Assembly: GCA_002366545.1 (NCBI GenBank)
Contig: DFBH01000074.1
Location: 1,033 to 65,032, forward strand
Source of the DNA: Candidatus Oleimmundimicrobium americanum
GTDB lineage: Bacteria; Actinomycetota; Aquicultoria; UBA3085; Oleimmundimicrobiaceae
Length of the DNA stretch: 64,000 nucleotides
Direction: 5' to 3'
Positions 6,832 to 61,395 of this stretch are shown here, in pieces (the stretch's first letter is position 1; every line of letters starts with the position of its first letter). Below the pieces are notes generated by a model. The model was not told the DNA's origin. It worked only from the letters and a program-made list of their open reading frames with translations, and ran no database searches. A program made the translations under genes and the position numbers.

Positions 6832-7084
6832 CAAAGTGCAGAGTATAGAATATGGAGTATGGATTATAGAAAAAACCAATAAACTACCGCTTGCCCGCAG
6901 GCGCGGTAATTAAAAATTAAGAAAGCTTTTATTCAGAGGATAATTCTTTGAATTGAAAGCAACTTAGAATTTTATCTTTTAGGGTTTGGTTTTAAATTTT
7001 AAATTTTAAATTTTTCTATATAGTTTTTCTTTTTTATATCTTAGTTCTTCATTTTGACTTACTACCGACTGTAAGGAGGATATT

Positions 7085-7276
7085 ATGGAGTGCACATTTG
7101 AAGAAAATAAAAAAAGTTGCCCTTGCACATACGAGCCCTGCAGCAGAAAGGGTAAGTGCTGCGAGTGCGTGGCTTATCATAGAAATAGAGGAGAGCTTCC
7201 CGGTTGCTTTTTCCCACCCGAGATTGAGTGCATCTATGATAGATCGATAGAGAGATTTGTTTCGCTCTATAAGTAA
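7085..7276 (+). CDS. small cysteine-rich protein (8 Cys in 63 aa), function unknown
   Basis: Strong SD: AAGGAGG 7 nt upstream of the ATG. Cys pattern is CxC-x4-C-x6-CCxC...C...C. Confidence 0.5.
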
Positions 7277-7365
7277 ACTGGCTGATAGCTTATAGCATAT
7301 GGCTGATGCCTGCCCGCCTCTGGCGGGGCTTATGACGTATGACAAATGGCTGGTAGTTAAGAATG

Positions 7366-7460
7366 AAGGGTAACGGGTAGAAAGGAAAGAGAGCTGGCGA
7401 CATAATAACATAGCGGCTTAGAAACCAAGTAGCCACGTAGCCAAGAAACTAAGGAATCAA
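7366..7460 (+). repeat. dispersed ~100-nt intergenic repeat element, copy 1 (sense relative to the upstream gene)
   Basis: GGGTAACGGGTAGAAAGGAAAGAGAGCTGGCGACATAATAACATAGCGGCTTAGAAACCAAGTAGCCACGTAGCCAAGAAACTAAGGAATC. Near-identical copies lie at 28764-28863, 53721-53813 and 61291-61395 on the opposite strand. Confidence 0.7.
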
Positions 7461-7687
7461 AGTAGAGACATGGTTAAAAATTGGGAGCACGGAGCTTGGA
7501 GTATGAAAAAACAAATCAACCAACTAGCGAACTACCGACTGGCAGACAGGTACAATAGACACGGAAATTTAAAATGTCTTTAAGAATTTTAAACTTTTTC
7601 ATTTTTATATATCGTTTTTAACTTTTATTTTTTAATTTTTAATTCGAACTTGCTCCCGACTGTCAACTAACAAACTACCGACTAATA

Positions 7688-11768: not shown

Positions 11769-12161
11769 CCCCTTTAAAAAATATCAGGTTTATATGATTA
11801 TTCTATCTTTAAAAAAATAAAATGTCATTAACATAACGGCGCCATAACATACCAAATTTCTGAGAATCAAAATAATATTATCTTAATAACTCTTAGAGAC
11901 GGCCACTTTGTGAAGCTTTTCCCCATTTCCACAGTTTTATCCACAACATATTGAGGATAAAATCTAAAAATCACTATATATCGTACGTTGCTCGTAAGTG
12001 ACTTTCTAGTAAATAAATGCACAAAAGTAATATTATTAGCAATGGACCCGGAATATAAATACAAAGCATATAACTTCCTAATAGATAATTCCAAGACCTA
12101 CCGGTTCTTAAATATCAGTAGCCGAAATATAGGACCAAGAACGACCGGCAACCGCTCCCGG

Positions 12162-14858
12162 CTATTTACTCCCAACCTTATCTATTCTCACTGCACATAC
12201 CTTAAACTCGGGAATCTTTGATACCGGATCGAGTGCGGGGTTGGTGAGCATATTTATTGGAGATTCCTTGAAGTGGAAGGGCACAAATATGGTCCCCTTG
12301 GGTATGTGTGAAGTTATACGTGCTTTAACTTTTACTTTTCCTCGGCGCGAGGAAAGTTCGACCCAATCATTATCTTTTATTTTAAGTTTTTTAGCATCTA
12401 CAAAATTTATCTCAACTCTGGCTTCCTTGCAAACCTCATTAAGACCCATGGAACGCCTGGTCATCGTGCCGGTGTGAAAGTGATACAGAAGTCTTCCTGT
12501 GATTAGGATAAACGGATAATCTTTATCGGGCTGCTCAGCAGGTGCTTTGTATTCAACGGCATGAAACTTGCCCAGTCCCCGCGTAAATTTCGCTGTATGA
12601 AGAATCGGTGTCCCCTGATGCGTTGCATCCGGACACGGCCACTGAACACTTTCCTCGCTTACCCTTTCAAATATTATTCCACCATAGGTTGGGGTAATAC
12701 TTGCAATCTCATTGGTAATCTCACCAACCGCAGCGTAATTCATATCATAACCCATGGCCTTCGCCAAATTGGAGATTATCAGCCAATCCGGTCGGGAGTT
12801 GCCAACCGGGGCAATGGCCCTTCTTACTCTCTGAACTCTTCTTTCGGTATTTGTAAACGTTCCATCCTTCTCAGCAAAAGTAACTCCCGGCAACACAACG
12901 TCGGCAAATTCAGCCGTCTCAGTTAAAAACACATCCTGAACAACCAAAAAATCCAACTTCTTAAAAGCCTCTTTCACGTGGTTTAAATCGGGGTCCGAAA
13001 GCATCGGGTTTTCGCCCATAACATACATCGCTTTAACTTCGCCACGCAAAACAGCATCCATCATCTCGGTGGCAACTAACCCGGGCTTTTCTGGAAGCTT
13101 TACTCCCCAAACATCTTTACATTTCTTAATAATCCCCAAATCACAGATGTTTTGATATCCGCTCACACAACCGGGAAGTGCCCCCATATCACAAGCACCC
13201 TGAACGTTGTTTTGTCCGCGAAGCGGATTTACCCCCGTTCCCGGCCTCCCAATATTTCCGGTAAGCATCGCCAAATTGGCAACGGAGAGAACATTGTCTG
13301 TACCCGTAGTATGCTGAGTGATGCCCATGGAATAAAAGATTGCTCCTTTTTCGGCCGAAGCGAATAATCTTGCTGCCTCCCTTAAAGAATCAGCGGGAAT
13401 ACCTGAAATATTCTCAACTTCCTCGGGCGTATATTTTGAAACCGTCTTCTTTAACTCTTTATAATCTTCCGTTCGTTTATCGATAAAATCCTTATCTTCC
13501 AAGCCCTCTTCGATTATCACGTTCATAAGCCCGTTTAAGACGGCAACATCGGTTCCCGGTTTTTGTGAAAGCCACATATCAGCATACTCCGTCAGTCGAA
13601 TCTCTCTGGGATCAATTACGATAAGCTTTACCTCAAAATCGGAGACCGCCCTCTTCATCTCAAGAGCAACTATGGGATGATTTTCGGTGGTATTTGAGCC
13701 AATAACAAGAATCACATTGGCCTCGTGTATATCGGCGATAGAATTCGTCATCGCTCCGCTTCCAAATGCTTTGACCAGACCGGCCACGGTTGGAGCGTGT
13801 CACAAGCGAGCACAGTGGTCGATATTGTTTGTGCCAATCACCGCCCTCATAAATTTCTGCATCAGATAATTTTCTTCGTTGGTACACTTTGCTGAGGAAA
13901 GACCGGCAATCGCGTCAGCGCCGTGTTTTTTCTTTATCTTTGAAAACTTGTCTGCAACAGTTTTAATCGCCTCATCCCAAGAAACTTCAACAAGTTTCCC
14001 GTCCTTTCGAACCAACGGAGAAGTAAGCCTGTCGGGATGGTTCACAAAGTCATAACCAAAACGGCCTTTTACACAAGTATTCCCCTTATTCACACCGCTC
14101 TCGACATCGGCTGAAACACAAATAATCTCTCCGTTTTTGATTTGGAGTTCCAACTCACACCCACAACCACAATAAGGACAGACTGTCTTAACTTTCTCTG
14201 TCTCCCAAACTCGCCCCTTGTATCTGCTCATCTTCTCGGTTAAAGCACCGGTGGGGCAGGTTGATATACACTGTCCGCAAAGTTCACATTTTGTTTCAAT
14301 AAGTGACTTGTCATAAGGAGTTGTTACTACCGAATCAAAACCTCGATTTGCGAAAGTATACACTTTATTCTGTTGAATCTCTTCACAAATGCGAACGCAG
14401 CGACCGCAAAGGATGCACTTGTTTGGGTCTCTTTCAATCAAGGGATTATAGTCTTCTATGGTGTAGATATGTTTTTCACCTTTAAACCGATTCTCTTCTA
14501 TTCCCAATTCGTAAGCTAAATCTTGAAGTTGACATTGGCCGGCGCTCTCACAAGTCAAGCAACTTAACTCATGATCGGAAAGTAAAAGCTCAACTATCGT
14601 TCTCCGTATTTTATAGAGAGGAATGGTATTTGTCCTAACAGCCATTCCATCGCCAACCTTGGTTGCGCAGGCAGGCAAAAAATTCCTCGCCCCCTCAACT
14701 TCGACGAGACAAACTCTGCAGGCTCCATAAGACTTGAGCCGCGGATCGTGGCAGAGCGTTGGGATTTTTATTCCATTTTCTTTAGCAACCTCAAGTATGG
14801 TTTGACCTGGTTCAGCTTCAATTTTTTCTCCATTTATTGTCAAATTAATTTTAGACAT
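12162..14858 (-). CDS. fdhA: formate dehydrogenase alpha subunit, selenocysteine-containing (in-frame UGA at 13800-13802)
   Basis: The N-terminal ORF (13800..14858) ends '...[11 protein letters not shown]' at a TGA. The same frame continues '[21 protein letters not shown]...', which matches the FdhF-type 'CARV-U-HGPSVAGL' Sec active-site motif. The N-terminus has a NuoG-type 2Fe-2S plus 4Fe-4S region. The C-terminus has a molybdopterin oxidoreductase domain. Confidence 0.85.
13750..13799 (-). promoter_or_regulatory. putative bacterial SECIS element immediately 3' of the UGA-Sec codon
   Basis: The mRNA after UGA reads CACGCUCCAACCGUGGCCGGUCUGGUCAAAGCAUUUGGAAGCGGAGCG. It has CGCUCC/GGAGCG complementarity and a GGUCUG core resembling the fdhF SECIS apical region (from memory). 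The fold has not been computed. Confidence 0.4.
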
Positions 14859-15324: not shown

Positions 15325-17142
15325 CTACTTAGCAATATATATAGCATCGAACGGACAGTGCTGCATACAAATGCCACATTTTACACATTTGGTCACATCT
15401 ATTTCGTGTGGCTGTTTCTTTTCCCCGGTAATCGCTCCCATTGGACAATGTTTCTTACAAACTCCACATCCTCTGCACACATTCTCTTTAATTACATAGG
15501 CAATGAGCTCAGAACATACCCCCGCGCGACATCTTCCCTCTTTAACATGCTCCTCAAACTCTTCTTGAAAATACTCAAGCATCGTAAGAATTGGGTTGGG
15601 AGCAGTTTGCCCTAAACCACAAAGCGATGCGACCTTAACATCTCGAGCTAATTCTTCTAAAAGAACCAATTCCTTTTCGTCGCTCTCCCCCTTGGTCATC
15701 CTTTCAAGCATCTCGAGCATCCGTTTGGTTCCAACCCGACAAGGAACACATTTCCCACAGGATTCCTTCTGGGTAAAAGTCAAAAAGTATTTTGCTAAAT
15801 CAACTACACAGGAGCTTTCATCCATAACAACCATTCCGCCTGAGCCCACAATGGCTCCCGTTTGAGTCAAGGACTCATAGTCTATTGGCGTATCAAGAAA
15901 CTCAGTCGGGAGACACCCGCCGGATGGCCCGCCTATTTGAACCGCTTTGAACTTTTTATCGTCCTTTATCCCACCACAAATATCAAATATCACTTTTCTA
16001 AGAGTGGTACCCATGGGCACCTCGACCAATCCGCCGTTTTTGACCTTTCCTGTAACCGCAAAAATTTTGGTACCCTTGCTTTTCTCCGTCCCAATGGCAG
16101 CAAACTTGTCAGCACCGTTCGTTATTATCCAGGCAATATTTGCAAGCGTTTCAACGTTGTTAATGTTGGTGGGCTTACCCCAAAGCCCGGACTGTGCCGG
16201 GAAAGGCGGACGAATCCGAGGCATGCCTCTTTTACCCTCAATTGAAGCCATGAGGGCCGTCTCTTCTCCACAGACGAAAGCCCCGGCTCCTTCCTTCATT
16301 TTAATTTCAAAATCAAAAGAGCTGCCAAGAATGTTTTTGCCCAAAAAGCCCTTCTTTTTAGCATGCTCAACCGCAATCTTAAGTCGCTTAACAGCCAAAG
16401 GATATTCGGCCCTAACATATATATATCCCTCGGACGCACCAATAGCGTAAGCAGCTATCATCATTCCTTCAAGCACGCTGTGAGGATCGCCCTCCAAGAC
16501 ACTCCTATCCATAAATGCTCCGGGATCTCCTTCATCAGCATTACAAATAACATACTTCACAGCCCCGGGGGCTTTTTGGGCAAAACTCCACTTAAGACCG
16601 GTGGGAAATCCTGCCCCACCGCGACCCCTTAAGCCAGAGGCTTTAACTTCTTCAACAACCTCTTCGGGGGACATCTTGTTTAAAACCTTCTCAAGCGCTT
16701 TATATCCGCCACTCTCGATATAGTCATCGATTTCTTCGGGATTAATTTGTCCGCAGTTTCTAAGAACTATCCTATTCTGTTTTTGATAAAAGTTTATATC
16801 CTTATAAAGAGAAATCTTTTTACCGGTCCGCGAATCTTCATAGAGCAAATCCTCTACAACCTCGCCGCCAATTAAATGCTCCTCGACGATTCGAGACACG
16901 TTCTCCGCGGAAACCGTAGGATAAAAAACTCCCTCGGGCTGAATAACAACGATCGGACCCTGCTGACAAAAACCGTGACACCCGGTTTGAACAATATCAA
17001 TTTCAGAAATTTTCCGCTTTTTAAACTCCTCTTTAAAAGCGGATTTCACTTTTTCAGAGCCACTTAAAACACAGCCGGTCCCCGTACAAATAAAAACCTT
17101 GTTTTGCTTTTCTTTAACTTTTACTTTGACCACAATTTTCAC
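15325..17142 (-). CDS. NuoF-like NAD(P)H-binding flavoprotein subunit with C-terminal 2x[4Fe-4S] (HydB/HndC/FdhB type)
   Basis: 'GLRGRGGAGFPTGLKW' FMN/NADH motif, 'ESCGKCVPCRVGT' N3 cluster motif, an N-terminal thioredoxin-like Cys4, and two CxxCxxCxxxCP motifs at the C-terminus. Confidence 0.8.
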   Translation of the reverse strand: MKIVVKVKVKEKQNKVFICTGTGCVLSGSEKVKSAFKEEFKKRKISEIDIVQTGCHGFCQQGPIVVIQPEGVFYPTVSAENVSRIVEEHLIGGEVVEDLLYEDSRTGKKISLYKDINFYQKQNRIVLRNCGQINPEEIDDYIESGGYKALEKVLNKMSPEEVVEEVKASGLRGRGGAGFPTGLKWSFAQKAPGAVKYVICNADEGDPGAFMDRSVLEGDPHSVLEGMMIAAYAIGASEGYIYVRAEYPLAVKRLKIAVEHAKKKGFLGKNILGSSFDFEIKMKEGAGAFVCGEETALMASIEGKRGMPRIRPPFPAQSGLWGKPTNINNVETLANIAWIITNGADKFAAIGTEKSKGTKIFAVTGKVKNGGLVEVPMGTTLRKVIFDICGGIKDDKKFKAVQIGGPSGGCLPTEFLDTPIDYESLTQTGAIVGSGGMVVMDESSCVVDLAKYFLTFTQKESCGKCVPCRVGTKRMLEMLERMTKGESDEKELVLLEELARDVKVASLCGLGQTAPNPILTMLEYFQEEFEEHVKEGRCRAGVCSELIAYVIKENVCRGCGVCKKHCPMGAITGEKKQPHEIDVTKCVKCGICMQHCPFDAIYIAK

Positions 17143-19266: not shown

Positions 19267-19289
19267 TTAAATCCTCACATTCATTGATA

Positions 19290-19530
19290 TACAACCCGGC
19301 CTTACGGCCTTGATAGCTGATGGCCCAAACTATAGACAATCAGCAAATTAAAAAATAAAAGTGAAAAAAGAAAAACTATAGATAAAAATTTAAAATTGAA
19401 AACCCAGCCCTAAAGGGCAGCCCTTTAAACCAGCTTTCAAAATCAGCCCTTAAAGCAGCCCCTATCCGTTAGCCAAAAGCTAAAACATAAAGACCAATAA
19501 CTAATAGCCATCTGCTATATGCCATCAGCC
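19290..19530. repeat. low-complexity intergenic block with 5 tandem ~13-nt CAGCCCTTAAAG-like units
   Basis: CCCAGCCCTAAAGGG/CAGCCCTTTAAAC/CAGCTTTCAAAAT/CAGCCCTTAAAG/CAGCCCCTATCCG at about 19397-19460, flanked by GCTGATGGCC / GCCATCAGCCATTAGCC words. Confidence 0.5.
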
Positions 19531-19531
19531 A

Positions 19532-22014: not shown

Positions 22015-22055
22015 AAAAACCTCTTTAGTCGGTAGTCTGTTTTTAGTCAAATTAA

Positions 22056-22300
22056 AAAATAAAAATTTATAACGATATAGAAAAATTTAAAATTTAAAAC
22101 CAAATCACAAAAGATAAACTTCTTAAAATGTTTTTAAAAACTTTTTTAATTTTTATCTATAGTTTTTCGTTTTTCATTCTCCATTTTTCACTTAACTCTA
22201 CCCCATACCCGTTTTTGCTCTCTGCTCTAACTATATTTTTCCTGGCAGCTGACAGCTGGTGGCTGTTTTTACCCTATACCCTTATACCCGTTACCTTTAT
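22056..22300. repeat. low-complexity AT-rich intergenic block upstream of hdrC with shared word modules
   Basis: TTAAAATTTAAAA words, CTCTCTGCTCTAAC, CCCTATACCCTTATACCCGTTACC (shared with other blocks), and the GTCGGTAGTC module at the hdrC 5' end. Confidence 0.45.
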
Positions 22301-28422: not shown

Positions 28423-28424
28423 CT

Positions 28425-28763
28425 CTCCTTTTAGTCAATTTTAGTTTAAAGTTAAAGGTTTAAAGCTGATAGCTCGTTCCCTTACATTCACTCGATGGCC
28501 AGTGGCCCACTCCCCGCCCATTGGCGGGTTCGCTCAATAGCTGACTCTCTACTCCATCAGTCGGTAGTCTCTTAGTGGGGAGTCGGGAGCTTGTTGGCCA
28601 GATTGCTAGTTTTGCTATACTCTATATTCCATACTCCATATTCTGCTCGCTCTCTGCTCTATGCTCCATGCTCTTTTCACTTTTAAATTTGCAATTTGCA
28701 TTTCTTTTTTACCCTTAACCCGTTACCCTATTAGTCGGGAGTCTCTTAGTTGGGAGTCGGGAG
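28425..28763. repeat. low-complexity modular intergenic block (short tandem 'word' repeats, strongly strand-asymmetric)
   Basis: Contains CAGTCGGTAGTCTCTTAGTGGGGAGTCGGGAG (twice), CCATACTCCATATTC, CTCTATGCTCCATGCTC, GCAATTTGCATTTC, CCCTTAACCCGTTACCC. The plus strand is almost G-free for more than 100 nt. Confidence 0.6.
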
Positions 28764-28863
28764 TTATCTGGTTTCTTAGCTTCTTGGCTACGTAGCTACT
28801 TGGTTTCTAAGTTTCTAAGTCGCTATGTTTCTATGTCACTATGTCGCCAGTTCCCTTTACCCT
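28764..28863 (-). repeat. dispersed intergenic repeat element, copy 2 (between acsB and acsC)
   Basis: Reverse complement of copy 1 with internal word duplications (TTTCTAAG x2, CTATGT x3). GC hairpin at 28885-28906 then abuts the acsB stop. Confidence 0.7.
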
Positions 28864-28916
28864 CTCAACTTTCTATCTGCCATTCGCCCCGCCAGAGGCG
28901 GGCAGGCATCTACTAA

Positions 28917-31118
28917 TTAGAACATCGGTGGCATCTCTAAAGCCGGATGACCCACTTTCTGCAGATAAGCTATAACTTCTTCCTCTGTACTTGCTACAGT
29001 TTCATCCGCTATTTTGTCAAAAAAGTCCGGCATGCCTTCTTCTTTCGCACGTTTCTGAAGCTCAAAGCGAAGAACATCTTTTAGCTCTTTTGGCATCCAG
29101 ACAACCCTCTTTAAACCCCCATCAGCAGAAATAAACTTCTTGCTCGTTATATATTGACGACCTATCCCAATAAACCCGGGGAGCTGAACCCCACCGCCAA
29201 CAGTGCCAGCGAGGGTCGAGAACTTCATTCCGCAGGGTGTCATTCCGGGAAACTCCCTATTTACTATCATCACTCCATTTGCCATCGGAAGAACCGCCAC
29301 CACACACTCAAAACAACCACACGAAGTCATTGGTTCATCCATCATGGAGTAGGCATTAAAATGCTCGATGGCTTGGTTAGATTTTCCATACACAAATTTA
29401 TTGACGTTTTCCCACTGCCCTTTAACCGCATCTATAATCTCACCCTTTTTAACCGGTTGGTTGGGACCCGTTGGATTAATTTCATAAGCCGCCTTGCCAT
29501 CGAGCCAATTGTAAGCCCCACAAAGACCCAACCTTTCAGGGGTAATTATACACACGTGATTTGGGGCAAAGCTCTGACACAATGTGCAGGAATAAAAAGT
29601 ATCGACGCTTTCATCATTCATGCCCCGCACTCTTTCATCTCTGTGACAGTAGGTTTTTCTCGCTTCCTCCATCATCTGGTCAACCTTTTCAGGATCGGTG
29701 TAGATTGTAACTTGAACCTTATCCACAATTGCGGGGTAATCCGCGACAAGTTTTGCGATAAGTATCTTCCCAAAGTGATGAAATTTAAAACCAGCATTCT
29801 TTGCCTTTTTGCTAACTCTTGCCCATATAATGTCACGCTGGCCCATATGAAATATTCCCTCAGCACCATTAATCATGTGATGAACTTGTCTCTCCAGAAC
29901 CGATTCAAAATCCTCTTGCATCTTTCTGCCAGCAACATCTATCACTAAACCTATGGGAAGTCTTTCGCCCTCTTTGATATCATCTATATCTTTACCAACC
30001 ACCTCAACCTTGCCGTTTTCCACCTCATTCATCTCTTTCATCCTCAAGAATTCAAAGGCATGTGTCTTTGTTCCGCCAAATTCTACATAGGTATCTTCTC
30101 TCCTAATTCTCTCTCCCTCGAAAGCAGAGCCAAAAGAAACGGGAATATCAACTTTGGTAACTTGAATCTTAAGTCCCCTTACCTCAATTGCCCTTTCAAC
30201 CAGCTTATCGTGAGGAATGTTTGACACAACGTGCTCATAAGTACAGATGCCTGTTGGAAGAATCTGGGGAATATCGGTATCAGCAATAGTCGGAAAGCCA
30301 TAATTTACAGCCGCTACTGCTTGAGCATATTTTTCATCTTCGACCTCGCCTAAAGCCAGAACAAAGGCAAAAATTCTATTCTTGTTGTAAAGTAATACCT
30401 TTCTAAAGTCTCCGGGCTCAACCCCACCGAAGGAAAGCGCGGCGCGAGTTGCAAAACCCGCGGAAAAAACAGTCGCGGTAATATCCTTGCCGAAGGGAAC
30501 GAGACGGGTTTCCCAGCCCATCTGGATACCTTCCTCTTTGAGTTGCTCAGCCATGCTTTTTCCATCGGCCGAGGCCGACATGAAGACATAAATATTCTTC
30601 TCTTGAAGCTCTCGAGCAATCTTTACCGCTATTTCATTTGTGGGAGCTGCTCCAACGCATGCGGCAAAACCGGGCGCTGAGCCATCAACAAATTCGACAC
30701 CTCTTTCTCTCATTATCACGTCATCAGCCGCACCCAACCAAAGATTATCATCAGTTGGTTCCGATGACATTGTATAAGGAGGCGATTCTACATACTTAAT
30801 TGCTTCAATAATTTCATCCATAAAAAGCGTCGCCATACCGGCATCCAAAGCGGGAGCCAGATACGGTAGCCAGACTTTCTCTGACGGAACAGGAGGAAGT
30901 AAACTCTTGGAATATGCCAAAACCTTCTCCATGTCTCCAAGGGTGGAAACCGCCATCCCGGTAATTGCATAAATCACGGGCAGATAGTACCCTGTGTTTG
31001 GAAACTCCACCTTTTTGTCGGGTCCATATTTCTCTAAAGCTTCTTTAAGATTTTTTTCCGCCCTCATGGCTATCTTGTGGGCGCCCCTTATGGCAGCCGA
31101 AGCAATAATCTTAGACAA
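28917..31118 (-). CDS. acsB: acetyl-CoA synthase AcsB (CODH/ACS beta subunit, CdhC)
   Basis: 'DTFYSCTLCQSFAPNHVCIITPERLGLCGA' and 'MTSCGCFE...' A-cluster ligand motifs. Length is 733 aa. Confidence 0.9.
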   Translation of the reverse strand: MSKIIASAAIRGAHKIAMRAEKNLKEALEKYGPDKKVEFPNTGYYLPVIYAITGMAVSTLGDMEKVLAYSKSLLPPVPSEKVWLPYLAPALDAGMATLFMDEIIEAIKYVESPPYTMSSEPTDDNLWLGAADDVIMRERGVEFVDGSAPGFAACVGAAPTNEIAVKIARELQEKNIYVFMSASADGKSMAEQLKEEGIQMGWETRLVPFGKDITATVFSAGFATRAALSFGGVEPGDFRKVLLYNKNRIFAFVLALGEVEDEKYAQAVAAVNYGFPTIADTDIPQILPTGICTYEHVVSNIPHDKLVERAIEVRGLKIQVTKVDIPVSFGSAFEGERIRREDTYVEFGGTKTHAFEFLRMKEMNEVENGKVEVVGKDIDDIKEGERLPIGLVIDVAGRKMQEDFESVLERQVHHMINGAEGIFHMGQRDIIWARVSKKAKNAGFKFHHFGKILIAKLVADYPAIVDKVQVTIYTDPEKVDQMMEEARKTYCHRDERVRGMNDESVDTFYSCTLCQSFAPNHVCIITPERLGLCGAYNWLDGKAAYEINPTGPNQPVKKGEIIDAVKGQWENVNKFVYGKSNQAIEHFNAYSMMDEPMTSCGCFECVVAVLPMANGVMIVNREFPGMTPCGMKFSTLAGTVGGGVQLPGFIGIGRQYITSKKFISADGGLKRVVWMPKELKDVLRFELQKRAKEEGMPDFFDKIADETVASTEEEVIAYLQKVGHPALEMPPMF

Positions 31119-33072
31119 TTTCCAGATCCCTCCTCATCTCCATGTCGTAAAGCACCCTCTCTTTCTCACGATCTATCCCTAAAGCTTTTCTTTTTGCATC
31201 AATGTGTTTAATTATTGTCTTGGCCATCTTAAAGGGATCGGGTTCATAAAACCACTTGCCACCCGTCATCTCCTTAATATCTTTAAAAAGATAATCCGAC
31301 ACCACCTCACTATTGGCCGTCGGGAAAGAGACACCGAAACCGGTCGGAACTCCGCTGGAAACAAAATATTGACCAATGACTACAGCCTTCTCACTCATCC
31401 ACTCGGGAGCACAACCCGCAGCCGGCACTTCATTTAAATCCTCGCCAAGACCACCTTCTTTAACTATCTCCGAGGCAGCAATAAGAATCCGGCTGTTATC
31501 CACGCACGAACCGCAATGAAGCACGGGAGGAATACCCACTGCCTCGCAGACCTCACGCAAACCGGCACCCGCAAGCTCAGCGGCTTCAGGAATAAGCAAT
31601 CTTTCTTTTGCGCAGCTTATCGCGGCGCACCCGGTCACCAAAACAAGCACATTGTTTGCGATAAGTTCTTTAACTAAAGTAGTGTGAACATAATCATGTT
31701 TAACCCGAGGGTTGTTGCATCCCACAACACCGACAACCCCCTTTATCCTGCCATTGATTATATTATCGTTTAACGGCTTGTAAGAGGCACGGAACCGTCC
31801 ACCAAGCAAATACTTTATGGTCTCGTGAGAAAAACCCGCGATTAGGTCAATTTCTTCCTTAGGAATATCGACCCTCCCTCTTTTGGGATAATTTTTAATT
31901 GCCCGCCTGACGATATCTTTTGCAATTTTAAGAGCGTCGTGATGATTAAACTCTATATGTGTAGCACCCAAAATCTTACCCTTCGCTGAGGTGGTAATTA
32001 CCTCAGTGTGATAACATTTAGCCACAGTGGGCAGAGATTGCATGATACATTGAACATCGACAACCATGACATCAACCGCACCTGTGGCAATAGCCAGTTC
32101 CTGCTGTAAGAAGTTACCGGCTACCGGAACACCTTTGCGCATCAAAAGCTCGTTTGCCGTACAACATATGCCGGCAATATTTATACCCTTAGCGCCCACC
32201 TTTTTAGCCTCTTCGATCAGCTCGGAGTCACTTGCAGCAGCAACTATCATCTCCGAAAGCAACGGCTCATGACCGTGAACTATTACGTTAACTTGATTCT
32301 CTTTAAGAACTCCTAAATTCACCTTTGACCTGACTGGAGCGGGAACACCAAAGAGGATATCCTGTAATTCGGTTGCCATCATAGAGCCACCCCAACCATC
32401 GGCCAAAGAGGTTCGGCAACCATGAAGCAAGATGTTTTTATAGTCCTGGTCAACTCCCATGTGAGTTCGATGCATCGTTTCCACTATTTCGCGATCTACC
32501 CCTCGGGGAGATATGCCTTCTTTTCTCCAACGCTCTTGTCTTTTCTCCGGAGCCTGTTTTACAAAAATTATCTCACCTTGTTGCTTCCCCATCTCAGCAA
32601 GAGCTTTCTCGCCCAACTCCAGAGCTATCTGGTTTTTATCCTTACCCTCCATATTAATATCAAAAATTTTGGCCAACGCATGCAACTTTTCTTCATTCTT
32701 AATTTCATAACCAGGTGCCTCACCCTTCGCGGCAGCAATAAAAGTAAATATGACCTCTCTAGCGTGATCAGAGTGTGCGGCCGCGCCGGCGGCTATCATT
32801 CGAGCAAAATTTCTGGCCGCCACCGTAGAGGCAGTGGCACCACAAACTCCCGTCCTCGTCTCAGTTACCCTGCAAGGACCCATTGAGCACACTCTGCAAC
32901 AAGTCCCACCGGCGCCAAATGAACATGGCTTAAGGGAAGCAACCCTTTCAAAGACGGTCTCTGCCCCATCCTTTCTGGCCTTATCTATCATTTTGGCGCT
33001 TGCCGTGCAGCTGGTTTGCGTGCTTGCCGCAGGGTAAAATTTACTTTCTCCTTTTTTGCTTTGCTTTTTCAT
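31111..33072 (-). CDS. acsA: Ni-dependent carbon monoxide dehydrogenase catalytic subunit AcsA/CooS
   Basis: 'CSFGAGGTCCRVCSMGPCRV' B/D-cluster motif and overall CooS family architecture. Length is 653 aa. It overlaps acsB by 8 nt. Confidence 0.9.
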   Translation of the reverse strand: MKKQSKKGESKFYPAASTQTSCTASAKMIDKARKDGAETVFERVASLKPCSFGAGGTCCRVCSMGPCRVTETRTGVCGATASTVAARNFARMIAAGAAAHSDHAREVIFTFIAAAKGEAPGYEIKNEEKLHALAKIFDINMEGKDKNQIALELGEKALAEMGKQQGEIIFVKQAPEKRQERWRKEGISPRGVDREIVETMHRTHMGVDQDYKNILLHGCRTSLADGWGGSMMATELQDILFGVPAPVRSKVNLGVLKENQVNVIVHGHEPLLSEMIVAAASDSELIEEAKKVGAKGINIAGICCTANELLMRKGVPVAGNFLQQELAIATGAVDVMVVDVQCIMQSLPTVAKCYHTEVITTSAKGKILGATHIEFNHHDALKIAKDIVRRAIKNYPKRGRVDIPKEEIDLIAGFSHETIKYLLGGRFRASYKPLNDNIINGRIKGVVGVVGCNNPRVKHDYVHTTLVKELIANNVLVLVTGCAAISCAKERLLIPEAAELAGAGLREVCEAVGIPPVLHCGSCVDNSRILIAASEIVKEGGLGEDLNEVPAAGCAPEWMSEKAVVIGQYFVSSGVPTGFGVSFPTANSEVVSDYLFKDIKEMTGGKWFYEPDPFKMAKTIIKHIDAKRKALGIDREKERVLYDMEMRRDLEIV

Positions 33073-35618
33073 TTGGCGACTCCTTCTTTTGAAACACTCA
33101 CAGCAATTAACCGATCTTGCGGGCTCTTTAATTTTAAATCTATGCCATCGCTCGATAGAACACCTTGTTTATTGTGGCAACTGGGCATAAAAAACATCCC
33201 CTTGGGCAAGAAATCAAGTATCTTCGCCGAGGTTATAACCTTGCCCCGTCTCGATTTAACCGTGACTTTGCAGCCATCCTCAAGCCCCAAAGACGCAGCA
33301 TCATCTGAATTAAAAACAACATAATCTCCCATGTTTGGTTCAAGCTCAGATAGTTTGGAATTTTTTGTTCTAACTCCATCATAGAACCCAAACGTTGTTT
33401 CTCCAACAATTAAAGTATAAGGATATTTTTTATCAGGCTCTTCACCGGAAATCTTGGGCTCCACTAAGGTGAACTTATATGTATTTTTTTCGATTTTCTT
33501 TGGGATAGAAACCAGAGACTTTATTTCCTTGGCAATCTCCTTTTCAGAAGAGTAGTCCATGGTGTAATTTACTTTTTTGGACAAGGCGACTACCGTTTCC
33601 CAATCAGCTTGGACCAAAGGTTCAATGGCTGTCCTAACTTCTTTTGTCCGATATTCCATATTAACAATGGTCCCATTGCTTTCAGCTAAAGTTACGCCCG
33701 GCAACACAACATCGGCCAATTTTGCAGTTTCCGTCAAAAAGGTATCTTGAACCACCAGGAAATCTAAGGATGAAAACGACTTAGCCACGCTGGAAGAGTT
33801 GGGAAGTTGAGCAACCGGATCTGCCCCAATTATATACATTCCAAGAATGGATGAACCCATTCCGTCCAGCATCTCCTTAATAGAAAGTCCGGCTTCTTTG
33901 GAAAGCTTTACTCCCCAGGCCTTTTCAAAATCGCTCCCGGCTTCATCCGCTTTTCTTACACCCGGATAAAATTCAGCCAACGCTCCCATGTAAACCGTGC
34001 CCCACAGATTAGAAGAGAGAAGGCACGGAAGAACGCTCGCTTTGGTTTTACCTGTTAAAAGAGAGATGTCGGCAATCAATTCCATGGTTTGAGGGCTTAC
34101 CGTCTCGGCCCCAAAGATTATAACCGTCTTCTTCCCTTCGCCATAGAGCTTTGCGGCTTCCTTTAAAACATCTTTAGAAATTCCCGACTCTCTTTCCACC
34201 GTTTCCATCTTCAATTTGCCAAGAGATTTCTTTAAGTCCTCAAATTTACCGCATTTCTTGGCAAATTCTTCATCATAAACCTTACCGTCAAGTAACTCTT
34301 TCAAAAGCCCGCTTAAAACAAACTCATTGGAGCCGGCCATTGACTGAATGTGTATATCAGCTTTCTCAGAAATTTTTGTCCTTCCGGCATCTACAACTAC
34401 CAGCTTTGCCCCGTTTGAAAGCGCTCTTTTTACTGCTACACCCACGCGAGGATAGGCCACTGTAACATCCGCGTTTACGAGCAAGAGAGCATCGGCTTCT
34501 TCAATGTTTTCCATTGAAACAACGGCTCCATCTCCCAGCGCTTCGTATAAATCAACCAAAGCGGGAAAACCGAGAAGTCTGGCGGAACTATCAATGTTAT
34601 TCGTCCCAATCCCGGCCCTTAAAAACTTTTGGAATAAGTAAGCAACCTCGTTTGTGTTCCCCGCACCAATAAAACCACCAATCCTATTTGCCCCATGGGC
34701 TTTTCTTATATCAAGAAGACGCTCTGCCGCAAACTCAAAGGCCTCTTCGTAGGTGCTCTCAGTTAAAACCCCGTTCTTTTTAATTAAAGGCTTGGTAATT
34801 CGCTTGGAGCTTTCCACAAAATCCCATCCAAATCTGCCCTTTGCGCAAAGAAAATCTCCGAGGCTCTCGCCGGTTGCTCTCATAATCTGCCCATCTACGG
34901 TACCAAATACGAGGTCACAGCCACAACCGCAATAAGAGCAGACCGTTTTAGTCTCTTCCATCTCCCATTCTCGCCCACGAAAACGCCTATCAACTTCAAG
35001 CAGCGCACCAACGGGACAAACCGCAAGACAACTGCCGCAGAAATCACAGCCCGATTCCTGCAGGGGCTTATCCATTGGTGTCGCCACTTTGGTAACCATA
35101 CCCCGCTTTACAAAATCGATAACATCTGCCCCCTGTGTTTTGCAAATTCCCACACATCGTCCGCACAAAATACAGAGATTGTAATTCCTCTCTATAAAAG
35201 GATTGCTTCTGTCAATCTCGTAACCGGGATCCTTCATTGAAAAAGCGGTTTTCTCAATCCCAAGCTCATAAGCATACTTCTGAAGCTCACAAGCCCCGTT
35301 TTTATCACAACTCATACAATCACCGGGATGATTTGAAAGTATCAGCTCCAGAACAAAACGTCTGGCTTCCCGAACTTTCTCGGTATCAGTATCAATCACC
35401 ATTCCATCCTTAACTTTCCGAGCGCATGAGGCCACGAGCCCTTTGGCCCCCTCAATCTCGACCAAACAAACTCTACACGACCCCGTACTGGGCAAGCATT
35501 CACAATAACAGAGATGGGGGATGTCTATCCCCGCCATCTTGGCCGCCTGAATGATGAGTATCCCTTCAGGAACCTTTGCTTCTTTTCCATTTATCATTAC
35601 GGTGATTTGCTCACTCAA
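33069..35618 (-). CDS. NuoG/FdhA-like molybdopterin-oxidoreductase-family subunit lacking the catalytic Sec/Cys (Leu at that position)
   Basis: The N-terminus has 2Fe-2S plus 4Fe-4S motifs like fdhA. The central motif is 'GTNNIDSSARL-L-GFPALVDL', where fdhA has 'CARL-U-HAPTVAGL'. It overlaps acsA by 4 nt (ATGA). Confidence 0.7.
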   Translation of the reverse strand: MSEQITVMINGKEAKVPEGILIIQAAKMAGIDIPHLCYCECLPSTGSCRVCLVEIEGAKGLVASCARKVKDGMVIDTDTEKVREARRFVLELILSNHPGDCMSCDKNGACELQKYAYELGIEKTAFSMKDPGYEIDRSNPFIERNYNLCILCGRCVGICKTQGADVIDFVKRGMVTKVATPMDKPLQESGCDFCGSCLAVCPVGALLEVDRRFRGREWEMEETKTVCSYCGCGCDLVFGTVDGQIMRATGESLGDFLCAKGRFGWDFVESSKRITKPLIKKNGVLTESTYEEAFEFAAERLLDIRKAHGANRIGGFIGAGNTNEVAYLFQKFLRAGIGTNNIDSSARLLGFPALVDLYEALGDGAVVSMENIEEADALLLVNADVTVAYPRVGVAVKRALSNGAKLVVVDAGRTKISEKADIHIQSMAGSNEFVLSGLLKELLDGKVYDEEFAKKCGKFEDLKKSLGKLKMETVERESGISKDVLKEAAKLYGEGKKTVIIFGAETVSPQTMELIADISLLTGKTKASVLPCLLSSNLWGTVYMGALAEFYPGVRKADEAGSDFEKAWGVKLSKEAGLSIKEMLDGMGSSILGMYIIGADPVAQLPNSSSVAKSFSSLDFLVVQDTFLTETAKLADVVLPGVTLAESNGTIVNMEYRTKEVRTAIEPLVQADWETVVALSKKVNYTMDYSSEKEIAKEIKSLVSIPKKIEKNTYKFTLVEPKISGEEPDKKYPYTLIVGETTFGFYDGVRTKNSKLSELEPNMGDYVVFNSDDAASLGLEDGCKVTVKSRRGKVITSAKILDFLPKGMFFMPSCHNKQGVLSSDGIDLKLKSPQDRLIAVSVSKEGVAK

Positions 35619-36157: not shown

Positions 36158-38052
36158 GTAGCCACCTCCTGCTTACCGGTAGGAGTAGATTTTCGTTCAA
36201 ACTGCCTCACAACACAACCGGTCGGGCATACTCCTATACAAGCCCCGCACTTTTCACAATATGATAAATCGATATAGAATCTGTCTCGCTCTTCCACAAT
36301 CGCGTCAAAAGCACACGCCTCCTTGCAAAGGCCGCAAAGAAGACAATCCTCCTCGTTTATCCGGTAATGGCCAAGTGCCGCACATTGCCCAGCCGGACAA
36401 TATTTATCCCTTATGTGAGCTTCATACTCATCTCTAAAATATTTAATGGTTGAAAGCACGGGATTGGGTGCACTCTTACCTAAACCACATAGAGCAGTTT
36501 CTTGAATATGTTTGCCGATGCTTTCCAAACGCTCAATATCTCCTTCTTCACCCTTGCCTTCGACAATTCTACTTAAAATCTCAAGCATCTCATGTGTCCC
36601 AATCCTGCAAGGCGGACATTTCCCGCAGGATTCCACCTGCGTGAAAGAGAGAAAATATCTTGCTAATTCAACCATGCAGTCGGACTCATCCATCACGACA
36701 AGTCCACCGGAGCCCATCATAGCCCCAGCTTCTGTTAATGAATCAAAGTCAACGAATAAATCCAAATATTCTTTTGGAAGACAACCGCCGCTAGGCCCTC
36801 CTGTCTGAACAGCTTTAAACTCTTTATCTCCCAAGATGCCACCGCCTATATCATAGACAATTTCCCGAATGGTTATTCCCATGGGAACCTCAATAAGACC
36901 AGTGTTCTTCACTTTTCCGGTAAGAGCAAATATTTTGGTTCCCGGAGAACCCTTCGTGCCTATGGAAGTGTACCAATCCGCTCCCTTAATTATTATTGGG
37001 GGAACATTAGCAAAGGTTTCAACATTATTTAACACGGTGGGTTTATCCCATAGCCCTCTCTCCACAGAACGAGGAGGAGTGGTTCGAGGCATTCCCCTTT
37101 TGCCCTCGATAGAAAACATGAGTGCCGTCGATTCTCCACAAATGAAAGCTCCCGCCCCACGTTTTATTTCCAAATCGAAATCAAAACCACTCCCAAGGAT
37201 ATTTTCACCCAAAAGACCAATCTCTCTCGCTTGGTTAATGGCTATTGTTAGATTATCAACCGCCAAGGGATATTCTTGTCTTACATATATAAATCCCTCT
37301 TTGCAATTGCCCAGAGCATAGGCTCCTATTATCATGCCTTCGATGACAGAATGAGGATCACCCTCCAAAACACTTCTATCCATAAAGGCCCCCGGGTCAC
37401 CTTCGTCACCGTTGCAAACAATATACTTTACGTCACCTTTTGTTCTTCGACCGCCTTCCCACTTTCTTCCCGCAGGAAAACCTGCCCCACCTCGACCTCT
37501 TAAATTAGATTTTTTAACCTCTTTTATCACTTCTTCCGGGGTCATATCATTTAAAACTTTTGCCAACGCTTCATAGCCACTGGCCACTATGTAATCTTCT
37601 ATATTGATAGGATCAACATGGCCACAATTCCTTAAAACTATCCTATGCTGTTTACCATAAAAGGAAATTTCCTCTTCTTTAACAGCAAGTTCGCCGATGA
37701 CAGGATCAACCACTTGCAACCGATCAACGACCTTGCCGCGATTTATTGTAAGGTCAACTATTTTCGCCGCATCAAATGGATCAACCTTTTGATAAAAAAC
37801 ATCTAAGGGCTCCACAATTACAACAGGACCTTTTTCGCACAATCCCTGGCAACCCGTGGGTCTTATCTCAAAATCGATGCCTTGTTTGACGGCTTCCGCT
37901 TTGAAGGCCTCAACAACCTTTTGTGCACCGGAAGCGCGGCATCCTGTCCCGCTGCAGACCCGAACTATCGTCTTTTTCTGCTTCGCTCTTTCGCTACATA
38001 TTTTTTTTCTCAAGACACTTAGTTCATTAGGGCTTTTAAACTTACTCATCAT
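36154..38052 (-). CDS. NuoF-like NAD(P)H-binding flavoprotein subunit with C-terminal 2x[4Fe-4S]
   Basis: 'NLRGRGGAGFPAGRKW', 'ESCGKCPPCRIGT', two C-terminal ferredoxin motifs. The probable start is ATG 38052 (RBS AAGGAAG, 8-nt overlap with the upstream nuoE-like stop) rather than 38082. Confidence 0.8.
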   Translation of the reverse strand: MMSKFKSPNELSVLRKKICSERAKQKKTIVRVCSGTGCRASGAQKVVEAFKAEAVKQGIDFEIRPTGCQGLCEKGPVVIVEPLDVFYQKVDPFDAAKIVDLTINRGKVVDRLQVVDPVIGELAVKEEEISFYGKQHRIVLRNCGHVDPINIEDYIVASGYEALAKVLNDMTPEEVIKEVKKSNLRGRGGAGFPAGRKWEGGRRTKGDVKYIVCNGDEGDPGAFMDRSVLEGDPHSVIEGMIIGAYALGNCKEGFIYVRQEYPLAVDNLTIAINQAREIGLLGENILGSGFDFDLEIKRGAGAFICGESTALMFSIEGKRGMPRTTPPRSVERGLWDKPTVLNNVETFANVPPIIIKGADWYTSIGTKGSPGTKIFALTGKVKNTGLIEVPMGITIREIVYDIGGGILGDKEFKAVQTGGPSGGCLPKEYLDLFVDFDSLTEAGAMMGSGGLVVMDESDCMVELARYFLSFTQVESCGKCPPCRIGTHEMLEILSRIVEGKGEEGDIERLESIGKHIQETALCGLGKSAPNPVLSTIKYFRDEYEAHIRDKYCPAGQCAALGHYRINEEDCLLCGLCKEACAFDAIVEERDRFYIDLSYCEKCGACIGVCPTGCVVRQFERKSTPTGKQEVAT

Positions 38053-53497: not shown

Positions 53498-53720
53498 TTT
53501 TACTTACCCCCGATTTAGTTATTGGCCCTTCTCAAATTATCATTCTCCATTTTTCATTTAACTATACCCTTTATCCATTACCCTTATTTTGCCATCTGCC
53601 ATAAGCTGCTTTGCAGCTAATTGTAAAATGCAAATTGCAAATATTAAATTGCAAAATTGTTTTCCTTTTTGGTTTTAAAACTTTAAAATCTCCAATTTCC
53701 CTGCCTGCCGGCAGTCGGAA

Positions 53721-53813
53721 GTTATCTGGTTCCTTAGTTTCTTGGCTACGTGGCTACTTGGTTTCTAAGTCGCTATGTCACTATGTTGCCAGCTTCTCGT
53801 TACCCTATACTCA
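53721..53813 (-). repeat. dispersed intergenic repeat element, copy 3 (between lysC and asd)
   Basis: TTATCTGGTTCCTTAGTTTCTTGGCTACGTGGCTACTTGGTTTCTAAGTCGCTATGTCACTATGTTGCCAG plus a GGGTAA-type flank. About 90% identical to the other copies. Confidence 0.7.
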
Positions 53814-55052
53814 TTACCCTCTATTACTGCCCAGGCCAAACTTATCGTGCAATGCTCTCACGGCCACACCAACATCTTTTTCATCGATAACACACGATAT
53901 TTTTATCGAAGATGTGCTTATCATCTCAATGTTTATATTGTTTCCAGCCAAAGCTGAGAACATATCGGCAGCAACCCCGGGGTGGGTTATCATACCCGCC
54001 CCAATCAAGGAAATTTTTGCGATATTTTCATCACACAGAGAGCCCCTGGCTCCAAGCTCAACAACTATCTTGTCAACCACATCTTTGGCTTTAATCAAAT
54101 CATCTTTCGTCACGGTAAAGGATATATCCGTAAAACCCTTTTCGCTAACGTTTTGGATAATCATATCGACATTTGCATTGGCATCAGATAGAGCTCTAAA
54201 AACCCTCGCTGCGATACCCGGTTTATCCGGCACACCTAAAATTGTAATCTTAGCTTCATCGATGTCGTGTGTAACTCCTCTTATTACAGCTTTTTCCATT
54301 ACTTTATCAGCCTCCTTAATCAGCGTCCCCGGCTCTTCCGAAAAACTCGATCTAACATGGATGTAAACACCATAATTTTGACCAAATTCCACGGATCTTA
54401 CTTGCAAAACCTTGGCACCGGTCGCTGCCATCTCCAACATTTCATCGAAAGATATCTCGTCAATTTTCTTGGCATCGGAAACCATACGAGGATCAGCGGT
54501 GTAGACCCCGTCAACATCGGTATAAATTTCACAGACATCCGCCTTTAGTTTTGCGGCAAGAGCAACAGCTGTAGTATCAGAACCGCCCCTGCCCAAAGTG
54601 GTTATATCGTTGTCTATGGTAACCCCCTGGAAGCCAGCGACAATGACTACTTTGTCTTTTTTAATCTCTTCCATAATACGTTTGGAACGAACGTCTAAAA
54701 TCTTTGCTTTAGTGTGAACTGCGTCGGTCACGATACCAACCTGTTGGCCGGTAAAGGATATAGCTTCGTATCCCAAAGAATAAATGGCCATACCGAGAAG
54801 CGCAACCGATACTTGCTCTCCCGTTGCCAAAAGCATATCCAGTTCTCTTTCGGGAGGTGAGGGGGTTATCTCGTGAGCCATCTTTAAAAGATTATCAGTG
54901 GTATCACCCAAAGCAGAAACGACAACAATCACGGAGTTTCCCTGATTCTTGGTTTTAACTATGCGCTTAGCCACATTTTTTATCCGTTCGGCGTTGGCAA
55001 TGGAGCTTCCACCGTACTTTTGAACAATTATACCCAAAAAAACATCCCTCAT
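53814..55052 (-). CDS. lysC: aspartate kinase (with C-terminal ACT domains)
   Basis: 'VQKYGGSS' and 'VVVSA' kinase motifs, with tandem ACT domains. Confidence 0.9.
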   Translation of the reverse strand: MRDVFLGIIVQKYGGSSIANAERIKNVAKRIVKTKNQGNSVIVVVSALGDTTDNLLKMAHEITPSPPERELDMLLATGEQVSVALLGMAIYSLGYEAISFTGQQVGIVTDAVHTKAKILDVRSKRIMEEIKKDKVVIVAGFQGVTIDNDITTLGRGGSDTTAVALAAKLKADVCEIYTDVDGVYTADPRMVSDAKKIDEISFDEMLEMAATGAKVLQVRSVEFGQNYGVYIHVRSSFSEEPGTLIKEADKVMEKAVIRGVTHDIDEAKITILGVPDKPGIAARVFRALSDANANVDMIIQNVSEKGFTDISFTVTKDDLIKAKDVVDKIVVELGARGSLCDENIAKISLIGAGMITHPGVAADMFSALAGNNINIEMISTSSIKISCVIDEKDVGVAVRALHDKFGLGSNRG

Positions 55053-61258: not shown

Positions 61259-61290
61259 TAGTCATTTAGTCGGTAGTCTCTTAGTGGGGA

Positions 61291-61395
61291 GTTATCTGGT
61301 TCTTTAGTTTCTTGGCTACGTGGCTACGTGGTTTCTAAGTCGCTATGTTGCTATGTCGCCAGCTCTCTTCCCCTTTTACCCATCACCCTTATTTG
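61291..61395 (-). repeat. dispersed intergenic repeat element, copy 4 (between ybaB and recR)
   Basis: TTATCTGGTTCTTTAGTTTCTTGGCTACGTGGCTACGTGGTTTCTAAGTCGCTATGTTGCTATGTCGCCAG plus a flank, preceded by the TAGTCGGTAGTCTCTTAGTGGGGAG module. Confidence 0.7.

Follow-up and report, generated by a model that had tools for sequence, protein, structure and literature searches.

The question raised by this locus is what the short, purine-rich sequence is that recurs in four intergenic spacers of the analysed stretch of DNA (the window, 64 kb in length and part of the 74,379-nt contig ENA ERZ27237536 k141_599161 from an uncultured acetogenic actinobacterium), and why each of its copies points in the same direction as the gene upstream of it. 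The original prediction, made from the letters of the sequence, regarded it as a lineage-specific, dispersed element of REP/MITE-like or regulatory RNA type. The element is non-coding and 80-130 nt long, with a core of 8-10 degenerate octamers, and its four copies in the window are arranged as follows:

7366..7460, + strand: copy 1 (profile core 7394-7459, E 2.6e-18); leader GGGTAAC-GGGTA, then the octamer array; located 90 nt 3′ of the DUF6485 gene (7085-7276, +), in a spacer flanked by convergent genes
28731..28863, - strand: copy 2 (profile core 28755-28850, E 1.2e-21); GGGTAAAGGG leader, 10-unit octamer array, then CCCGACT-type heptamer words ACTCCCGACTCCCAACTAAGAGACTCCCGACTAA; located in the 494-nt acsB→acsC spacer
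53713..53820, - strand: copy 3 (profile core 53713-53792, E 1.3e-25); GGGTAAT...GGGTAAC leader, then 8-unit octamer array; located in the 316-nt lysC→asd spacer
61266..61395, - strand: copy 4 (profile core 61283-61362, E 1e-23); GGGTGATGGGTAAAAGGGG leader, 8-unit octamer array, then ACTCCCCACTAAGAGACTACCGACTAA; located between ybaB and recR

The positions and strands originally proposed for these four copies were recovered by sequence reading, by a core pattern and by a profile HMM. The 24-nt core GTAGCCACGTAGCCAAGAAACTAA, with up to three mismatches, was matched only four times in the window, at 7429 (+), 28776 (-), 53734 (-) and 61304 (-), and in none of 100 dinucleotide-preserving shuffles, so the claim that the similarity is not random low complexity stands. 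The profile HMM built from the full-length copies recovered the same four (E 1e-18 to 1e-25) and found no further copy in the 64-kb window. The window copies are 89-97% identical to one another. The 3′ end of copy 1 is diverged or truncated, lacking both CCAG and the CCCGACT words; copy 2 presents two additional 8-nt units compared with the other copies; and copy 4 occupies most of the gap from the ybaB stop to the ribosome-binding site and GTG start of recR, whose product is 198 aa as called. The copies form sub-families that differ in their left arms, copies 1 and 4 having 94 nt in common, and copy 2 and a fifth copy having AAAGTTGAGAGGGTAAAGG in common. This fifth copy was found on the same contig, about 1.1 kb past the left end of the window, between genes for LemA and an M48 peptidase with which it is co-directional, and it ends 14 nt 5′ of a start codon. 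Five external copies, two in the MAG JAUWKI01 and three in the metagenome Ga0209121, brought the total to ten. About 300 kb of the clade was surveyed in this way, and any genome-wide copy number or orientation is an extrapolation from it. The contig with the copies was independently assembled in ENA, JGI and Logan data, and the proposal of a lineage-specific dispersed repeat is supported.

Contigs of other assemblies terminate inside a copy or at most 170 nt from one (L015 8774-8804; L003 168-247). Contig ends at repeat copies are the usual sign of a multi-copy repeat that breaks short-read assemblies. Another repeat, GTCATTGCGAG(N)AAGC(N)GCAATCTC in form, borders copies of the element or cuts them short in related genomes (L002 ~1765-1800; L004 ~2440-2400, -), and just the 3′ half of the octamer core is left beside this repeat in the L004 copy.

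The internal organization of the element was resolved by cutting the core in register after CTG, which gave the series GCGACATA GTGACATA GCGACTTA GAAACCAA GTAGCCAC GTAGCCAA GAAACTAA GGAACCAG ATAACTCC... The 73 units of nine copies follow the consensus GNRRCNWA, preserving G1 in 71/73, R3, R4 and W7 in 73/73 each, C5 in 72/73 and A8 in 53/73. The original description of duplicated 6-8-nt words was correct as to the repetition and is refined here to a degenerate octamer array: the autocorrelation at lag 8 was 0.57-0.64 per copy, a value reached by 0/5000 shuffles for each, against about 0.1-0.38 (~0.25) at other lags, with lags 16 and 24 high as well. TRF detected in the element just short sub-arrays of 2-5 copies with a 77-100% match. 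The first three octamer units differ among copies, and the last five, which make up the 3′ 40 nt (GAAACCAAGTAGCCACGTAGCCAAGAAACTAAGGAACCAG), are nearly invariant. Since the units are unlike each other and their order is fixed across copies, the element is probably an ancient array that now acts as a dispersed element. On the 5′ side of the array there are usually one to three words of the GGGTAAN type and then a short A/G linker that ends in CTGG; on the 3′ side, it is followed by CCAG and often by CCCGACT-type heptamers.

The four intervals originally claimed contain 42.5% A, 25.7% G, 18.1% C and 13.7% T. They are purine-rich as predicted (66-71%), and the accompanying description as C-depleted holds only in part, T being the most depleted base (13.7% vs 18.1% for C). 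The predicted lack of terminal inverted repeats (TIRs) was also verified, as the longest exact one measured 4-6 nt, the same as the average over shuffles (4.5-4.8). A short complementarity, GGGAG-CTGG...CCAG-ATAA-CTCCC, brackets the array and is 81.5% paired compared with 26-53% in slid controls; its value was reached by 57/500 shuffles and its covariation was not significant, and these 4+5 bp are too short and too weakly supported to be a TIR. Fixed ends were not found either, both the left and the right end varying among copies.

The two strands of the element behave very differently. The sense strand carries 7-10 stop codons per copy, spread over all three frames (P 0.005-0.011 vs composition-matched shuffles), together with 0-1 start codons and a longest open run of 12-17 codons, and the predicted absence of coding capacity was thereby confirmed for this strand. 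The antisense strand presents 2-4 stops, 5-7 starts and one frame open across the whole element. A search of 5.8 billion predicted proteins with the peptide of this open antisense frame returned no candidate copy. The open frame attracts false gene calls. In one public annotation, a 120-aa ORF was falsely called antisense over copy 1 (7049-7411, -; L012 4486-4848), and the real DUF6485 gene (7085-7276, +) was left out of that same annotation.

Folding analyses revealed a similar asymmetry. The sense RNA of seven copies folded at chance (z -1.77 to +1.13), and in three of the four window copies it reached -15 to -18 kcal/mol versus -24 to -32 kcal/mol for the antisense RNA. The z values of the latter were -4.2, -2.5, -1.5 and -0.65 in the four window copies, with a contribution of G-U pairs, and its consensus hairpin was weak (-16.5 kcal/mol, covariation term +0.36). 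As single-stranded DNA, both strands folded no better than shuffles (z -0.8 to +1.3, -2.6 to -7.3 kcal/mol). The original prediction of a regulatory RNA element found no positive evidence. Among the analyses that it had proposed, the comparison of covariation across copies was not significant, the observed values being reached by 57/500 and 88/500 shuffles, and Rfam gave no family match at the copies at gathering thresholds; at E<=1 it yielded four weak hits in total, none overlapping a copy.

The orientation of the element was examined in its gene context. All ten copies are co-oriented with the upstream gene, which has a probability of 2^-10 under random orientation, and 9/10 lie between co-directional genes. 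The five copies on the 74,379-nt contig are oriented -,+,-,-,-, each in the direction of the gene immediately upstream; the -/+ switch falls within 8.5 kb, amid interleaved gene directions, and the whole -,+,- succession within about 30 kb. The five external copies in JAUWKI01 and Ga0209121 are likewise co-oriented with their flanking genes. The lock to the upstream gene that had been predicted thus holds in every copy, including those on either side of the switch. Because the orientation follows local gene direction along one contig, it is tied to transcription and not to replication, and for a replication-linked orientation both an origin and a terminus would have to lie in some 30 kb. The search for a dif-like site yielded none, the best matches having 9-11 mismatches.

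The neighbouring genes were confirmed by NCBIfam as originally named, namely acsB (28917-31118)→acsC, lysC (53814-55052)→asd and ybaB (61415-61723)→recR, with dnaX upstream of ybaB, and the Cys-protein gene upstream of copy 1 corresponds to a 63-aa Cys-rich ORF (7085-7276), which a public annotation of this contig assigns to Pfam DUF6485. The true start of AcsC is two codons 3′ of that of the longest ORF. Among the copies, the distance to the downstream start codon ranges from 14 to ~330 nt, some copies ending 14-35 nt 5′ of a start, and copy 1 has no downstream gene. Scans for promoters and terminators around the four copies gave counts at or near shuffle expectation, with nothing common to the copies. 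Because the copies bear no such signals beyond chance, the element would most simply be co-transcribed with the upstream gene, as judged from sequence. A Rho-utilisation site was ruled out, since C does not outnumber G in the element and its copies lie inside operons.

One copy has become part of the end of a gene. A 1-nt deletion at the end of lysC (53814-53830, -, compared with the closest relative, L016 11205-11218) destroyed the ancestral TAG stop. The reading frame now continues for two more codons, up to the TAA (53816-53814) of the first GGGTAA word in the leader of copy 3, so that LysC has 407 aa in the window vs 405 aa in the closest relative. This shift is an anecdote consistent with the idea of the element as a stop-codon backstop.

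Syntenic loci from five relatives were compared to follow the element through the clade. The nearest named relative is Candidatus Oleimmundimicrobium sp. (88% identity in AcsC, 83% in LysC), and the homologues of these two proteins place the window in Actinomycetota. The closest relative is represented by a Ga0311295 contig with 86-91% nucleotide identity to the window. No copy was found in its 42.5 kb of syntenic DNA, which match window DNA with three copies, and all three orthologous spacers are empty. Its acsB-acsC spacer aligns well with that of the window, apart from a GC hairpin module of 33 nt and a stretch of some 140 nt that contains the element. Nor was the element found in the orthologous acsB-acsC spacer of any of the five relatives, and in the six genomes this spacer measures 494, 292, 104, 249, 106 and 93 nt; among relatives, the spacers of lysC-asd and ybaB-recR are just as mosaic and as unlike one another. 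Given the empty orthologous spacers in the closest relative, the element is an insertion/deletion polymorphism on a short evolutionary scale, gained or lost quickly. At the two filled sites, acsB-acsC and lysC-asd, GGGTAA-type arrays flank the inserted block on both sides, and comparison with the empty sites revealed no target-site duplication, the boundaries being ragged and flanked by word arrays. No transposase was found near the copies.

In JAUWKI01, by comparison, 18.5 kb of conserved Wood-Ljungdahl genes are about 81% identical to the window (range 76-85%), and the orthologous spacers cannot be aligned with those of the window. Its copies of the element, at other, non-orthologous sites, are nevertheless 88-98% identical to the window copies, and thus have diverged from them no further than the window copies have from one another (89-97%). 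An identity of this order, set against that of the conserved genes, suggests either that the sequence of the element is constrained or that it has recently spread between lineages. Nothing similar turned up when plasmid and phage collections were searched by BLAST with copy 3, or when viral contigs were scanned for the pattern, and literature searches found no description of the element.

The element does not stand alone in these spacers. A second dispersed family is a GC hairpin module, GCCTGCCCGCC-TCT-GGCGGGGC, found in the window at the following positions:

7305..7334, + strand: 28 nt 3′ of the DUF6485 stop, upstream of copy 1
28881..28910, - strand: 6 nt 3′ of the acsB stop, upstream of copy 2
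48573-48606, - strand: a further occurrence, with more at L016 ~5340 and L017 ~5600

Every occurrence of this module begins 0-28 nt 3′ of a stop codon, has the same direction as the upstream gene and lacks a T tract; the module could be a U-tract-less terminator or a 3′-end stabiliser. Comparison with the closest relative indicated that, at acsB-acsC, it was inserted separately from the octamer element. Mosaics of heptamer words occupy the spacers at 6832-7687, 19267-19531, 22051-22300, 28423-28916, 48510-48607 and 53498-53813, the spacer words being GGCAGAT, GGGTAAN, GGAGTAT/AGAGTAT, AGAGCAG, CCCGACT, TTTGCAA and TTTTAAA, and an AT-rich module of 50-70 nt is present at 6978-7054, 7588-7645, 19345-19414 and 22049-22193. 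Several of the spacer modules are common to different genomes at 80-97% identity. Relative to the upstream gene, 45 module words in the window are in sense and 2 in antisense; antisense CCCGACT words exist upstream of two operon starts outside the window. The element is one module in a wider set of word arrays, made of heptamers and octamers and locked in orientation, with which the spacers of this clade are filled.

The likeness to known families of small repeats was evaluated next to these features. REP and BIME sequences are imperfect palindromes of 21-65 nt that form a G+C-rich stem-loop, and with MITEs they share with the element a small size, many copies, an intergenic location and a non-autonomous nature. 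However, the element has no palindrome, its single-stranded DNA folding at z -0.8 to +1.3 and its sense RNA at z -1.8 to +1.1; unlike a MITE, it has no TIR beyond the 4+5-bp interrupted complementarity and lacks a target-site duplication; nor was a RAYT or transposase partner seen for it. The REP/MITE-like assignment was consequently abandoned, as neither palindrome or DNA hairpin, nor TIRs beyond chance, nor target-site duplication, nor fixed ends were present. The BOX elements of Streptococcus pneumoniae, composed of boxA, a variable number of boxB and boxC, are intergenic and non-autonomous, form stable stem-loops and occur in both orientations. The element resembles them as a dispersed, intergenic, non-autonomous and modular mosaic with a variable internal unit number, but it is unstructured in sense and strictly oriented. 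The IS200/IS605-derived PATEs carry sub-terminal hairpins in single-stranded DNA and have an orientation tied to the replication strand, whereas the element lacks such a hairpin and follows the genes through the -,+,- switch. It also differs from KOPS- and Chi-type motifs, as its orientation is not skewed with replication (judged from the switch at contig level) and no dif-like site accompanies it. CRISPR, retron, group II intron and DGR repeats were ruled out by size, by the lack of structure and by the non-coding context.

The nearest functional analogue, by comparison of features, is the MIRU. According to the summary of Supply et al. (1997) given in PMC3184786, MIRUs are actinobacterial repeats of 40-100 bp placed in operon spacers, within polycistronic mRNA, and known from filled and empty orthologous sites; the same summary attributes to them small ORFs that overlap the flanking genes, G+C-rich internal inverted repeats, imperfect TIRs and tetranucleotide direct repeats at filled sites. 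The element is likewise actinobacterial, intercistronic and found in a single orientation relative to transcription (9/10 copies between co-directional genes, 10/10 co-oriented), with filled and empty sites and a variable unit number. In contrast to MIRUs, it is stop-rich and devoid of a sense ORF (7-10 stops, 0-1 starts), it has neither a DNA hairpin nor a direct-repeat footprint, and it is A-rich (42% A), whereas MIRUs, known here by their description in PMC3184786, are G+C-rich. A second comparison concerns arrays of a single word, such as the cyanobacterial STRR and the TAACTGA heptamers of Beggiatoaceae, Cyanobacteria and Bacteroidetes (MacGregor, PMC4679880), and the long simple sequence repeats with 5-11-nt units of Mrazek (2007), as cited in PMC4679880. 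Such arrays share with the element units of 7-8 nt, an intergenic position often just 5′ of starts, forward stop codons, no predicted RNA structure and a patchy phylogenetic distribution. Nevertheless, they consist of one repeated word that arises or varies in place, whereas in the element different octamers stand in a fixed order over about 80 nt, and the whole is copied to many loci as one unit and conserved between species. The match to a known repeat family by which the original prediction had hoped to settle the matter was given neither by Rfam nor by the plasmid, phage and viral collections. The element is a genuine dispersed repeat, specific to this lineage, oriented with transcription and built around an octamer array. 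It represents a new family among small bacterial repeats of a kind already familiar, and its unusual points are its strict orientation and a conservation above coding level.

As to origin and function, the favoured reading, in which our confidence falls somewhat short of even, is that of a non-autonomous, co-transcribed and inert spacer module that is spread by recombination and filtered for orientation. The element would be copied among spacers by non-reciprocal recombination or template switching at common word arrays, without a transposase. This is probably how it spreads, judging from two filled/empty comparisons with ambiguous junctions, because neither fixed ends nor a target-site duplication nor a transposase close by was found, because the copies form sub-families with different left arms, and because GGGTAA-type arrays flank the inserted block at both informative filled sites. 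The sense RNA, being purine-loaded, U-poor and unstructured, would form an inert intercistronic or 3′-UTR/5′-UTR spacer that neither terminates transcription nor starts translation, and which may halt stray ribosomes and keep the downstream ribosome-binding site unpaired. In the antisense orientation, an insertion would place a G-U-stabilised hairpin, 5-7 starts and an open frame inside an operon and would be purged, and we infer that this selective filter underlies the strict orientation lock. The inert-spacer picture is consistent with Szybalski's rule, which describes the purine-loading of the mRNA-synonymous strand. Against it stands the conservation of the element across species, at 88-98% identity vs ~81% in conserved genes and with an almost invariant 3′ 40 nt. 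A purely inert filler should drift, and this conservation argues for a sequence-specific constraint, set by a binding partner or by mobilisation machinery, or for a very recent horizontal spread. The conservation of the 3′ 40 nt is the main weakness of the inert-spacer reading, and a protein-binding platform stays a serious rival.

In such a platform, the sense array, and especially its invariant 3′ 40 nt, would be a periodic site in the mRNA for an RNA-binding protein with several subunits or domains (S1-, Csp-, KH-, HutP- or TRAP-like) that tunes the translation or stability of neighbouring genes. This reading, which we hold to be rather unlikely, draws on the cross-genome identity at non-orthologous sites, well above that of conserved coding DNA, on the nearly invariant 3′ half, kept alone in L004, on the invariance of octamer positions G1, C5, R3, R4 and W7, and on the strict sense orientation; the sense RNA is unstructured and thus accessible, and some copies end 14-35 nt 5′ of a start codon. 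A precedent exists in the TAACTGA heptamers upstream of starts, to which S1, Csp and CsrA have been suggested to bind (PMC4679880). However, the distance to the downstream start varies from 14 to ~330 nt and copy 1 has no downstream gene at all; the flanking genes (acsB/C, lysC/asd, ybaB/recR, LemA/M48) are functionally unrelated, the closest relative lacks the element at all three orthologous sites, and no candidate binding protein was identified. The octamer pattern, moreover, derives from three or four unit types and may merely reflect common descent. A broader version, to which we accord a small probability, would make the array a sequence-specific, periodic RNA or transcription-coupled recognition element, either a platform for an oligomeric RNA-binding protein that governs intercistronic translation or decay across many unrelated operons, or the cis-sequence of an RNA-mediated (retro-type) copying system whose insertions are confined to transcribed spacers and to the sense orientation; either form would explain the 88-98% identity despite genes at ~81% and unshared insertion sites.

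The remaining alternatives look for the function elsewhere than in the sense RNA. A structure on the opposite strand, whether an antisense small RNA or a REP/PATE-type single-stranded DNA hairpin recognized by a RAYT or an IS200/IS605-type transposase, is highly unlikely. Insertions of IS200/IS605 and REP elements follow the replication strand, whereas this element follows local gene direction through the -,+,- switch. The antisense RNA does fold better by means of G-U pairs (z -4.2, -2.5, -1.5, -0.65), most pairs of its -16.5 kcal/mol consensus hairpin are kept via one-sided changes, and its closing stem, CTGG/CCAG plus GGGAG/CTCCC, is 81.5% paired vs 26-53% when slid; but as single-stranded DNA neither strand folds beyond chance (z -0.8 to +1.3), covariation does not reach significance (57/500, 88/500 shuffles; covariation term +0.36), no antisense promoter is predicted and no transposase lies nearby. 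The element could also be seen as a carrier of polar DNA motifs with a replication-dependent orientation, such as FtsK/SpoIIIE-orienting words (KOPS/SRS-like GGGNAGGG), Chi-like GCTGGYG motifs or tandem protein sites. The G-rich GGGTAAAGGG words and the GCTGGCG/GCTGGTG motif, which we take to resemble the KOPS and Chi of E. coli, as well as the location of most copies on the strand with most genes, speak for this explanation; its probability is nonetheless very low, as the -,+,- switch within ~30 kb follows individual genes and so not the replication direction, no dif-like site was found, the 8-bp period mismatches the DNA helical repeat and the element is confined to transcribed spacers. Finally, simple words abound in these spacers and repeats can cause misjoins in MAG assemblies, but a chance low-complexity similarity or an assembly artefact has a practically negligible probability when an ordered 80-nt series of distinct octamers recurs at 88-98% identity, its core appears in 0/100 shuffles and the same copies are present in the independent ENA, JGI and Logan assemblies.

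If the conservative reading as an inert spacer module holds, a well-delimited family would be added to the small dispersed repeats of bacteria, in an uncultured, Wood-Ljungdahl-bearing branch of Actinomycetota. In practical terms, the element breaks assemblies, contigs ending in or beside its copies, and draws false gene calls. In this clade, the spacers are composed, mosaic-like, of word arrays locked in orientation, which turn over far faster than genes and yet are common to different species. They offer a tractable case for studying how intercistronic sequence is built, why the mRNA strand is purine-loaded and stop-rich, and whether the cell makes use of such modules or they are neutral or selfish. 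If instead the element is bound by a protein or copied through RNA, it would indicate a post-transcriptional or mobility system that is so far uncharacterised.

Additional observations were made in other parts of the window. The 393-nt spacer at 11769-12161 is devoid of the word modules and contains a perfect DnaA-box, TGTGGATAA, and a near-match; an origin at this place is unsupported, as gene orientation and GC skew do not fit. In the adjacent gene, an in-frame TGA (13800-13802) joins the ORFs 13800..14858 and 12162..13787 into an 898-aa molybdopterin oxidoreductase (12162-14858, -). Its context, NIDHCARL-U-HAPTVAGL, is typical of selenocysteine formate dehydrogenases, and an Rfam SECIS_3 match was obtained at 13747-13805 (42.4 bits, E 2.7e-6), under the gathering score of 63. 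Aligned along its full length, the 898-aa read-through product shares 42% identity with an 849-aa paralogue (33069-35618), in which a Leu is placed opposite U. Two paralogous clusters of formate-dehydrogenase-like and NADH-dehydrogenase-like genes lie about 20.8 kb apart, and the following coding segments in them are 73-75% identical:

12843-12956 and 33654-33767: first pair of paralogous cluster segments
16439-16560 and 37310-37431: second pair of paralogous cluster segments
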